A stretch of 64,000 nt of DNA from assembly GCF_053078305.1 (NCBI RefSeq), contig NZ_CP166879.1. One strand, given 5' to 3'. Shown here one piece after another: positions 43,885 through 45,315 of the stretch. Made by a program: the position numbers and the translations under genes. Positions within the stretch are counted from its first letter, which is position 1. Every line of letters starts with the position of its first letter. A model generated the notes under the pieces. It was not told where the DNA came from, searched no databases, and saw nothing but the letters and a program-made list of their open reading frames with translations.

Positions 43885-43914
43885 CTGATTAAACAGGGAA
43901 GTCAAACATTAAAA

Positions 43915-44017
43915 TTGCCTGATGCGCTACGCTTATCAGGCCTACATCGTGCATTGAAATTGAATGGATTTGCAATGAACTGTAGGCCGGATAAGGCGTT
44001 TACGCCGCATCCGGCAA
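43915..44017. repeat. REP/BIME cluster
   Basis: tgcctgatgcgctacgcttatcaggcctaca ... tgtaggccggataaggcgtttacgccgcatccggcaa; flanked by 15-bp direct repeats attaaacagggaagt at 43888-43902 and 44048-44062. Confidence 0.75.
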
Positions 44018-44278
44018 GAGCAACAAACGCAAGTACAGCAACCTGTCATTAAACAGGGAAGTTTAATCTTTGCCCGTTGCATAACCTTTAATTATTCATA
44101 TGCATTGCTGTTGTTACTCTTTATATAACTAACACCAATAATTAACCTTTCTTTTCTGTTTATATAGAGTGAGTACGGCTATTTATGTTATTTTAACAAC
44201 TATTACTACCAAGCCCATTTATCTGGCTTATAAATTAAAATTAATTATTTAATTGAGAAATGGTTAGGGAGAACCTAC

Positions 44279-45148
44279 ATGGCCATAAGCATCAAGGGTG
44301 TTAATACCGGTGTTATTCGCAAGAGTAATAATTTCATTGCACTGGCGCTGAAAATTAAAGAACCTCGCAATAAAGAATCGTTGTTCTTTATGTCTGTCAT
44401 GGAACTGCGCGACCTGCTGATTGCGCTGGAAAGTCGTCTGCATCAAAAGCATAAACTGGATGCTGCTGCACGCCTTCAGTATGAGCAAGCTCGCGATAAA
44501 GTCATTAAGAAAATGGCAGAAAACATCCCAGAAATTCTGGTTGATGAGCTTAAAAATGCCGATATTAATCGTCGGGTTAACACGCTGGAACTTACCGATA
44601 ATCAAGGCGAAAATCTTACCTTCGTATTAACGCTACATGACGGTAGCAAATGTGAGTTAGTCGTCAATGAGTTGCAGATTGAAATGCTGGCGCGAGCAAT
44701 CATTCATGCAATTAATAATGCGGAAATGCGTGAACTGGCATTACGTATTACCTCACTGTTAGATTTCCTGCCGTTATATGACGTTGACTGCCAGCAAAAT
44801 GGCAATCTGGAATATGACACCTATTCCCAACCGGAATGGAAACATAACTTGTTCGACCATTATCTGGCGGTGCTTTACCGCTTTAAAGATGAAAGTGGCA
44901 AAGAACAATTTAGCGGCGCAGTGGTGAAAACGCGTGAAGCAACGCCGGGTAAAGAAATAGAGGCGATCACTCGCCGAATGCTTGATTTCAGCCCACGACT
45001 GAAAAAACTCGTGGGTGTGCCATGTCAGGTCTATGTTCGCACCGTAGCGGCGAATAACGCCCAACCGCTAACCCAGGATCAATGCTTACGCGCGCTGCAT
45101 CACTTACGTGTTCAATCCACCAGCAAAACTGCACCACAGGCGAAATAA
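44279..45148 (+). CDS. yjeJ: uncharacterised protein YjeJ
   Basis: ORF 289 aa; preceded by a very AT-rich 240-bp leader; no recognisable motifs by eye. Confidence 0.8.
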   Translation: MAISIKGVNTGVIRKSNNFIALALKIKEPRNKESLFFMSVMELRDLLIALESRLHQKHKLDAAARLQYEQARDKVIKKMAENIPEILVDELKNADINRRVNTLELTDNQGENLTFVLTLHDGSKCELVVNELQIEMLARAIIHAINNAEMRELALRITSLLDFLPLYDVDCQQNGNLEYDTYSQPEWKHNLFDHYLAVLYRFKDESGKEQFSGAVVKTREATPGKEIEAITRRMLDFSPRLKKLVGVPCQVYVRTVAANNAQPLTQDQCLRALHHLRVQSTSKTAPQAK

Positions 45149-45214
45149 TCTCATCTTTGCTAATGCGAGGCTGGAGCCATCCAGCCTGAAATGACTGATA
45201 ACGTGATCATTGGT

Positions 45215-45315
45215 CATGCCGGATGCGGCGTAAACGCCTTATCCGGCCTACAAATTCTCAAGCATTCAATCAGTTGCAATGCCTTATGTAGGCCTGATAA
45301 GCGAAGCGCATCTGG
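45215..45315. repeat. REP/BIME cluster
   Basis: tgccggatgcggcgtaaacgccttatccggcctaca and gccttatgtaggcctgataagcgaagcgcatc between yjeJ and yjeI. Confidence 0.75.

Follow-up and report, generated by a model that had tools for sequence, protein, structure and literature searches.

We analyzed the flanks of the gene yjeJ in a stretch of 64,000 nucleotides (nt) of contig NZ_CP166879.1 (GCF_053078305.1), here called the window, whose positions serve as coordinates throughout. This part of the window has the gene order efp-epmB-yjeJ-yjeI-groEL of Escherichia coli, as judged from open reading frames (ORFs), Pfam matches, and annotated matches. On either side of yjeJ lies a pair of repetitive extragenic palindromic (REP) sequences, each forming part of a bacterial interspersed mosaic element of type 1 (BIME-1). 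Four pairs of filled and empty alleles, together with an excess of flanking repeats among 20 BIME-1 loci, show a pattern in which insertion of a BIME-1 appears to duplicate the target hairpin; the 5' edge of the duplication is fixed, whereas its 3' edge varies. As for yjeJ, we think it probable that the gene is an old, fast-evolving resident and that the two BIME-1s landed later, one on each side, each copying a short target hairpin.

The upstream element had been described in the first-pass annotation as a BIME bounded by identical 15-bp copies, and both copies were confirmed. The 15-mer ATTAAACAGGGAAGT occurs on the plus strand at 43888-43902, 3 nt after the epmB stop codon, and again at 44048-44062, 160 bp away. 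It is otherwise absent from the window: no further copy was found in the 64 kb with two mismatches permitted (chance expectation, 0.08 matches), and 0 of 100 shuffled sequences contained two copies. The 145 bp between the two 15-mers (43903-44047, plus strand) are essentially one whole BIME-1. The left copy comprises the 5' arm, the loop, and 2 nt of the target hairpin, and the right copy runs into the whole hairpin, ATTAAAC-AGGGAA-GTTTAAT (44048-44067, plus strand). Empty alleles, which were of the O157:H7 type and the B2 type, read CAGCAGTAACTGATTAAACAGGGAAGTTTAATC. They carry a single 15-mer and are exactly 160 bp shorter, the sum of the 145-bp element and one 15-bp copy, with precise junctions in O157 and MS20658. 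The suggestion that the repeat is an insertion-associated duplication was thus borne out, and its length, checked against the empty alleles, is 15-16 bp. The hairpin of the empty site is weak and A/T-rich, folding at -4.9 kcal/mol (z = -2.8).

The REP cluster that had been noticed after yjeJ proved to be a second BIME-1 in inverted orientation (45188-45333, minus strand; REP pair at 45213-45316). Its target was the bidirectional terminator-type hairpin between yjeJ and yjeI, GAGGCTGGA-GCCA-TCCAGCCT (45167-45188). In the downstream empty allele, the intact hairpin GAGGCTGGAAGTATCCAGCCTC is directly followed by TGGATCAC and folds at -10.4 kcal/mol (z = -5.1). In K-12, CCAGCCT is found on both sides of the insert, and in Escherichia whittamii the insert is bracketed by CATCCAGCCTC[A/T]GA, identical at 13 of 14 positions, corresponding to a duplication of at least 14 bp. 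In the window, the second copy was removed by a 10-bp deletion, and the left copy, CCAGCCT, survives at 45181-45187.

The two elements were then compared with each other and with other BIME-1s, the REPs being located by a fuzzy regular-expression search. The REP pairs on the two sides of yjeJ are inverted copies of each other, a relation that the first-pass annotation had not mentioned; they are about 114 nt long and 83-95% complementary. The elements start 18 nt past the epmB stop codon and 39 nt past the yjeJ stop codon, respectively. They measure 145-146 bp, their outer motifs align with those of other BIME-1 copies, and both are extragenic, each at a transcription unit's 3' end. Each site holds one unit with no tandem array, and the linker between the REPs is about 34-35 nt, compared with 28-33 nt at typical loci. 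Canonical BIME-1 linkers carry a core, CAATATATTGAAT, that resembles a binding site for integration host factor (IHF) and is one mismatch away from YAANNNNTTGATW; in both yjeJ copies the linker has diverged from this core. In the upstream copy, ~11 nt are also missing from the start of the canonical left motif. Both elements fit the published definition of BIME-1 (PMC3333891; PMC1187871), the presence or absence of which varies among isolates (PMC1187871). Both are standard BIME-1 repeats of the K-12 map, with a strain polymorphism known since 1997.

To describe this polymorphism, 5,426 complete E. coli genomes were searched with positions 43700-45500, and representative alleles of the discrete length classes were aligned. 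Spans of 1,795-1,811 bp contain both elements (K-12 and the window itself), 1,641 bp the downstream one only (O157:H7), 1,652 bp the upstream one only (MY203L1), and 1,498 bp neither (MS20658); in a span of 3,085 bp (PSS-15), both are present and the downstream one has an IS621 inserted. All four combinations of presence and absence were thus found, with yjeJ present in each. To obtain frequencies, we probed the genomes with that part of each insert which is unique and lies outside the REPs. The upstream element was present in 3,222 of the 5,426 genomes (absent in 41%) and the downstream element in 3,539 (absent in 35%). About a third of the genomes have yjeJ with neither BIME. The non-REP flanks of either insert are single-copy wherever they occur, so no donor copy sharing them was found in these genomes.

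Both elements were also found in relatives of E. coli. E. whittamii and cryptic-clade species share the upstream element, its junctions and repeat included; it was seen in E. whittamii, Escherichia sp. MOD1-EC7003, Escherichia sp. E1V33, and the divergent SCPM-O-B-8794 lineage, the second repeat copy being deleted in MOD1-EC7003. The downstream element was present in the same four and in Escherichia albertii. Since the elements occur in these other Escherichia lineages, both insertions predate E. coli. The absence of the upstream element from E. albertii, which carries the downstream one, means that the histories of the two BIMEs differ. At the downstream site at least, empty alleles in E. coli would most simply be precise secondary losses. 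Direct repeats around a long palindrome should make a good substrate for such loss, and excisions of a whole BIME-1, which fit precise loss, were reportedly described in the abstract of Bachellier et al. in 1997.

We next asked how general the hairpin duplication is. The sample consisted of 20 unique, independent BIME-1 loci among the matches listed, taken from metagenome contigs with one exact-match pattern. A unit of about 152 bp with the canonical ends 5'-GAGACTGATGACAAACGCAAAATT…GTCAGCAATCTGA-3' was common to the 20 loci; among the matches listed, its length was 151-161 bp in 19 of 20 and 187 bp in the remaining one (L089), where the end motifs were poorly matched. The 50 nt outside the left end were compared with the 50 nt outside the right end, and 380 mismatched-locus comparisons served as the null (mean score, 12.1; 95th percentile, 16; 99th percentile, 21; maximum, 24). 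Seven of the 20 loci scored above the 95th percentile of the null, where about one was expected, with scores of 35, 34, 33, 26, 21, 21, and 18, and four scored above the 99th percentile. In all seven, the flanking repeats abut the canonical ends of the element, and they usually cover a GC-rich, terminator-like stem-loop. A stable stem-loop (-9 kcal/mol or lower) lay just outside the Y-side end at 13 of 20 loci and on either side at 15 of 20, compared with 8 of 40 displaced control windows (Mann-Whitney, P = 0.0013).

Empty alleles were found for two further loci, both from this set, each with one hairpin. At tkt-prohibitin, the empty allele reads …GTAAAAA[AAGGGCCGCTTTCGCGGCCCTT]CTCACAAAG… and the filled one consists of the hairpin, a 152-bp BIME-1, and the hairpin again. 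At artJ-rlmC, the empty allele reads GATTCAGA[AAGCCGCACCTGCGGCTT]TTTTATTGC, and the filled one has the hairpin, the BIME-1, the hairpin, and a T-tract. Checked against these alleles, the duplications are 22 bp at tkt and 18 bp at artJ. All four verified empty targets, the two at yjeJ included, fold as hairpins (z = -2.8 to -6.3). The Y-side end of the element is always at the 5' foot of a complete hairpin. The other edge of the duplication varies: the whole hairpin is duplicated foot to foot at tkt, artJ, L094, and L153, at both yjeJ sites it reaches no farther than the loop or the beginning of the 3' arm, and at L109 it extends about 10 bp past the hairpin. Its length accordingly ranges from 14 to about 35 bp. 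The left copy was lost secondarily at the downstream site of the window (where the element lies on the minus strand), in MOD1-EC7003, and in an artJ allele of E. coli A3024.

The A3024 allele (L210) is a third allele at artJ-rlmC: its BIME-1 is only about 85% identical to that of K-12, and it lacks the left hairpin copy and 8 nt of the upstream flank. Either this allele is old and has diverged, or a BIME-1 inserted here independently, at the same hairpin. The bases just 5' of the target hairpin are ATTCAGA at artJ and at the downstream yjeJ site and ATCTCA at L109; they resemble the right terminus of BIME-1, AATCTGA. The window contains a third BIME-1, in the rnr-rlmB spacer (9797-9935), which has no clear flanking repeat. 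In some genomes (e.g., CH4811, L207), this spacer is shorter by 90 bp, and one REP, a different one, takes the place of the BIME-1. This polymorphism is a replacement or an expansion rather than a simple pair of presence and absence and is neutral toward the duplication model.

The dissemination mechanism of REPs, BIMEs, and REPINs was still called unresolved in 2021 (PMC8266576). Published models of REP mobility involve an IS200/IS605-like circle of single-stranded DNA (ssDNA) (PMC3333891). TnpA_REP recognizes hairpins and cuts beside them; its cleavage is confined to ssDNA, at C^T close to a functional REP, and double-stranded DNA is not cleaved in vitro (PMC3333891). The IS200/IS605 family produces no sizeable target duplication (PMC2817692), whereas the four verified sites, in the order upstream yjeJ, downstream yjeJ, tkt, and artJ, carry duplications of 15-16, at least 14, 22, and 18 bp. 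A hairpin-anchored duplication of variable length is not predicted by a simple IS200/IS605-type model. Two specific schemes were considered and rejected. One, rejected as a sufficient explanation, is a TnpA_REP model that uses the C^TGA present at either end of the element for excision and a C^T in the target for insertion. It gives no duplication, and no CT stands at the junction in the verified empty targets of artJ and tkt. In the case of insertion into the hairpin loop with repair of each half, complementary halves are expected, but the two copies are direct repeats.

We tentatively propose that a BIME-1, the REPIN of E. coli, spreads not by plain IS200/IS605-style cut-and-paste of ssDNA but by integrating at a stem-loop's 5' foot, the stem-loop typically being the hairpin of an intrinsic terminator, and that the hairpin is re-copied in the process. 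This would leave a duplication of 14-35 bp with one fixed and one variable edge, through either a template switch or structure-directed staggered nicking; we consider this proposal as a whole plausible, though short of probable. For the step itself, we give a slight and provisional preference to a template switch at hairpin-stalled replication. Synthesis would stall in the hairpin or just past it, the stalled synthesis would switch template to the donor strand of a BIME-1, and it would then re-enter at the foot of the hairpin and copy the hairpin once more. Alternatively, nicks at the opposite feet of a hairpin or cruciform, insertion of a double-stranded BIME-1, and gap fill-in might give the same product with no template switching. 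This staggered cut would account directly for the loci where the duplicated segment is the full hairpin (tkt, artJ, L094, and L153), and it could draw on the recognition of hairpins and the adjacent cutting by TnpA_REP (PMC3333891) as well as on the imperfect terminal inverted repeats of BIME-1, GAGACTGATGACAAAC versus the reverse complement CAGATTGCTGACAAAG, which match at 12 of 16 positions. However, the duplication breaks off within the hairpin at the yjeJ sites, in the loop or where the 3' arm begins, and continues for about 10 bp past the hairpin at L109, so one of the cut positions would not be fixed by the structure, and TnpA_REP does not cleave double-stranded DNA in vitro. We regard the staggered cut as rather unlikely.

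A different kind of explanation is that the 15-bp repeat was pre-existing or arose by chance and that the "empty" alleles are deletions that used it. Short repeats around palindromes are classic deletion hotspots, and the sister species are filled, so some of the empty E. coli alleles probably are derived deletions. Deletion, however, accounts for the loss of an element and not for the origin of the repeat. Moreover, an exact 15-bp repeat is unexpected by chance, as the shuffles showed; repeats of other sequences abutting the canonical ends recur at the downstream site and at least six further loci; and mismatched flanks attain such scores in less than 1-5% of comparisons. A pre-existing repeat is thus very unlikely. 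Several points also weigh against insertion with copying of a target hairpin. The evidence is wholly comparative and no insertion event was observed, the template switch is our inference, and the C^T chemistry of TnpA_REP on ssDNA would by itself give no duplication. A flanking repeat is still seen at only 7-8 of the 20 loci, which may mean that the duplication is not universal or that it decays, and the 20-locus sample, among the matches listed, rests on one exact-match pattern. The likeness of ATTCAGA to AATCTGA could reflect microhomology at insertion or a target preference. Finally, the upstream empty alleles of E. coli may be ancestral or derived by precise deletion.

The history of yjeJ was followed in 80 species-level loci retrieved with EpmB, in which the neighboring genes were placed by tblastn. 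Its slot between epmB and yjeI is occupied by the gene in 41 species, which belong to about 15 genera, with 35-97% identity that roughly tracks relatedness. YjeJ identity is 92-97% in Escherichia (all five other species retrieved have the gene), 67-74% in most Citrobacter (40% in two), 57-62% in Salmonella, 55-60% in Kluyvera, and 35% in Atlantibacter; the gene holds this position in Pseudocitrobacter, Trabulsiella, Yokenella, Intestinirhabdus, Superficieibacter, Phytobacter, and Kosakonia as well. For comparison, in the same species identities are 84-98% for EpmB, 70-100% for YjeI, and 95-100% for GroEL. In Raoultella, Klebsiella indica, Enterobacter, Lelliottia, Buttiauxella, Cedecea, Franconibacter, and some Citrobacter and Kluyvera, yjeJ is absent and the spacer is only 41-136 bp. 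At the other Klebsiella loci and in Leclercia, yjeI is not beside epmB either, and the slot was left unscored. The ORF is intact, with strongly conserved motifs, in 41 of 41 orthologues, indicating that YjeJ is maintained. In Citrobacter sp. wls619, a clean deletion of about 1 kb removed the leader and the gene, from the epmB terminator to the REP that lies downstream of yjeJ in relatives. From these comparisons, yjeJ appears to be a fast-evolving gene that has been lost repeatedly.

Some of these loci had further features. In one of the Kosakonia/Phytobacter group (L062), an ORF of 572 aa lies between yjeJ and yjeI (~7130-9240) and looks like a methyl-accepting chemotaxis protein by inspection of its sequence; a comparable ~2.1 kb of additional DNA is found at this place in two others of that group (L067 and L068). 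In Citrobacter youngae (L019), an unrelated ORF of 572 aa lies between epmB and yjeJ (6053-7771). The epmB-yjeI interval thus appears to gain and lose genes recurrently. A record titled Chryseobacterium sp. 18061 (L040) has an enterobacterial efp-epmB-yjeJ-yjeI-groEL locus closely parallel, in where the genes lie and in their identities, to that of Citrobacter sp. 18056 (L054), and the assembly is probably mislabelled or contaminated.

The composition of yjeJ is partly atypical. Its GC content is 45.1% (z = -2.5), and its GC content at third codon positions is 0.448, the second lowest of 44 genes. The AT-rich stretch reported upstream of it was confirmed: the 216 bp from the second 15-mer copy to the yjeJ start (44063-44278, plus strand), which are near-invariant among E. 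coli alleles, have 28% GC compared with 52% for the window. Codon usage, in contrast, is average, with a relative codon adaptation index of 0.707 (mean, 0.717). Since yjeJ has a lower GC content than epmB in all the species, its low GC is a lasting feature and not a signal of fresh import. In a study by genomic SELEX, the epmB-yjeJ spacer is listed as a constitutive RpoD (sigma-70) promoter, TTAACC-17-TAGAGT, without the HNS flag that other spacers in the table carry (PMC3946193). By reading the sequence, we located this promoter at 44142-44170; a scan of the leader for consensus promoters and terminators gave nothing useful, with fewer sites than in shuffled sequences.

The first-pass annotation had taken yjeJ for an old horizontally acquired or REP-mobilised insertion, and the data bear on two versions of this idea. 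In one, yjeJ and its two inverted BIME-1s would be a composite, REP-mobilised cassette inserted as one unit, as might be suggested by inverted copies bracketing a single AT-rich, patchily distributed gene. But yjeJ stands with neither BIME in about a third of E. coli genomes and with just one in others, and the same slot is occupied in Citrobacter, Salmonella, Kluyvera, and other genera, many of them with no REP in the epmB-yjeI interval. Moreover, the two BIME-1s differ in their phylogenetic distribution, E. albertii having the downstream one only; each is accompanied by a target duplication of its own; and no duplication surrounds the whole unit. We give hardly any credence to a cassette. 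In the other version, E. coli would have acquired yjeJ recently, and the AT-rich leader would mark a young islet silenced by H-NS. The low GC of the gene and leader and the absence of yjeJ from Klebsiella, Enterobacter, Raoultella, Buttiauxella, Cedecea, and others would fit this. However, at least 5,393 of the 5,426 E. coli genomes (at least 99.4%) and the five other Escherichia species carry the yjeJ region or gene, which is syntenic in about 15 genera; codon adaptation is average and GC is below that of epmB throughout; no tRNA, no integrase or transposase ORF, and no outer repeat was found near yjeJ; and the epmB-yjeJ spacer is listed without the HNS flag. A recent acquisition is thus highly improbable. 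That the gene is "old horizontally acquired" is neither shown nor excluded; any acquisition predates the divergence of these genera.

The gene itself (44279-45148, plus strand) encodes 289 aa. YjeJ matches Pfam PF15922 (YjeJ-like) with an E value of 9e-174 and 577 bits (cutoff, 27) over residues 1-283 of 283, and NCBIfam, PADLOC, and a sequence profile search against the Protein Data Bank (PDB) gave no match. Its predicted fold would contain PUR/Whirly-like beta-beta-beta-beta-alpha repeats; a Foldseek comparison of the predicted structure with the PDB found no significant match, and the identity to the ssDNA/RNA-binding repeats of Pur-alpha/Whirly proteins is 11%, with no relationship at the sequence level. 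A yjeJ deletion has served as a neutral linked marker (PMC10679819). The neighboring genes are efp (42248-42814, minus strand) and epmB (42856-43884, plus strand; EF-P beta-lysylation protein, identified by its ORF, a Radical SAM Pfam match, and annotated epmB genes) on one side and yjeI (45341-45694, minus strand; a DUF4156 lipoprotein according to its ORF and Pfam) and groEL (45832-47478, minus strand) on the other. A Guanidine-II (mini-ykkC) riboswitch was detected at 41651-41697 on the minus strand (50.4 bits; gathering score, 32), a known element upstream of the guanidinium exporter gene gdx/sugE. At the BIMEs, Rfam gave only naRNA4 matches below the gathering score of 59.5, at 43985-44074 (43.6 bits) and 45213-45248 (40.4 bits). 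These matches lie on the Y REPs and reflect a likeness to the REP325 array, not a separate RNA gene.

As first described, the locus is ordinary, with known BIME-1s and one more AT-rich accessory gene. The one result that might surprise a specialist is the hairpin-anchored duplication of variable length, which is absent from the accessible definitions of and literature on BIME-1, a scope that does not include the primary descriptions of the 1990s. It constrains the mechanism of spread, contradicts the simplest transposase model, and predicts terminator hairpins as targets. It also provides a signature for dating and polarizing BIME-1 insertions in thousands of genomes. Integration at a hairpin foot, if true, would account both for the location of BIME-1s at gene 3' ends and for the possibility of their precise loss. 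At such a site, a single terminator becomes, through the insertion, two terminators with a REP pair between them, and this may alter the formation of the 3' ends of epmB, yjeJ, and yjeI in strains that differ at the two sites.

Compared with known systems, the elements flanking yjeJ show no essential difference from the BIME-1 (RIB/RIP) elements of E. coli and are BIME-1s. Like the REPINs, which are REP doublets mobilized by a RAYT, the domesticated Y1 HUH transposase TnpA_REP, they have an inverted REP doublet as the replicative unit within a long imperfect palindrome, no coding capacity, and a slow turnover of presence and absence; no RAYT gene is found within the 64-kb window. The ssDNA cut-and-paste proposed for that system, however, gives no sizeable duplication (PMC2817692), whereas BIME-1 loci show duplications of variable length. 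Transposable elements of the miniature inverted-repeat type (MITEs), such as Correia, ERIC/IRU, and RUP, are likewise small and non-coding and have imperfect terminal inverted repeats, flanking target repeats, and precise empty sites. Their duplications are short and of a fixed length set by a DDE transposase (TA, or 2-9 bp), in contrast to those of BIME-1, which follow the target hairpin and vary in length from 14 to ~35 bp; according to a review, REPs lack the signatures of MITEs (PMC3184786). Insertions made by quasipalindrome template switching, or by fork stalling and template switching/microhomology-mediated break-induced replication (FoSTeS/MMBIR), share with BIME-1 a templated insert, a local duplication of variable length, breakpoints at secondary structures, and a short similarity of the donor end to the target flank (ATTCAGA versus AATCTGA, at two loci). 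Such events normally copy arbitrary nearby DNA, whereas a BIME-1 is a discrete unit of about 152 bp with fixed ends every time, and a defined donor molecule or a recognition step is therefore implied.

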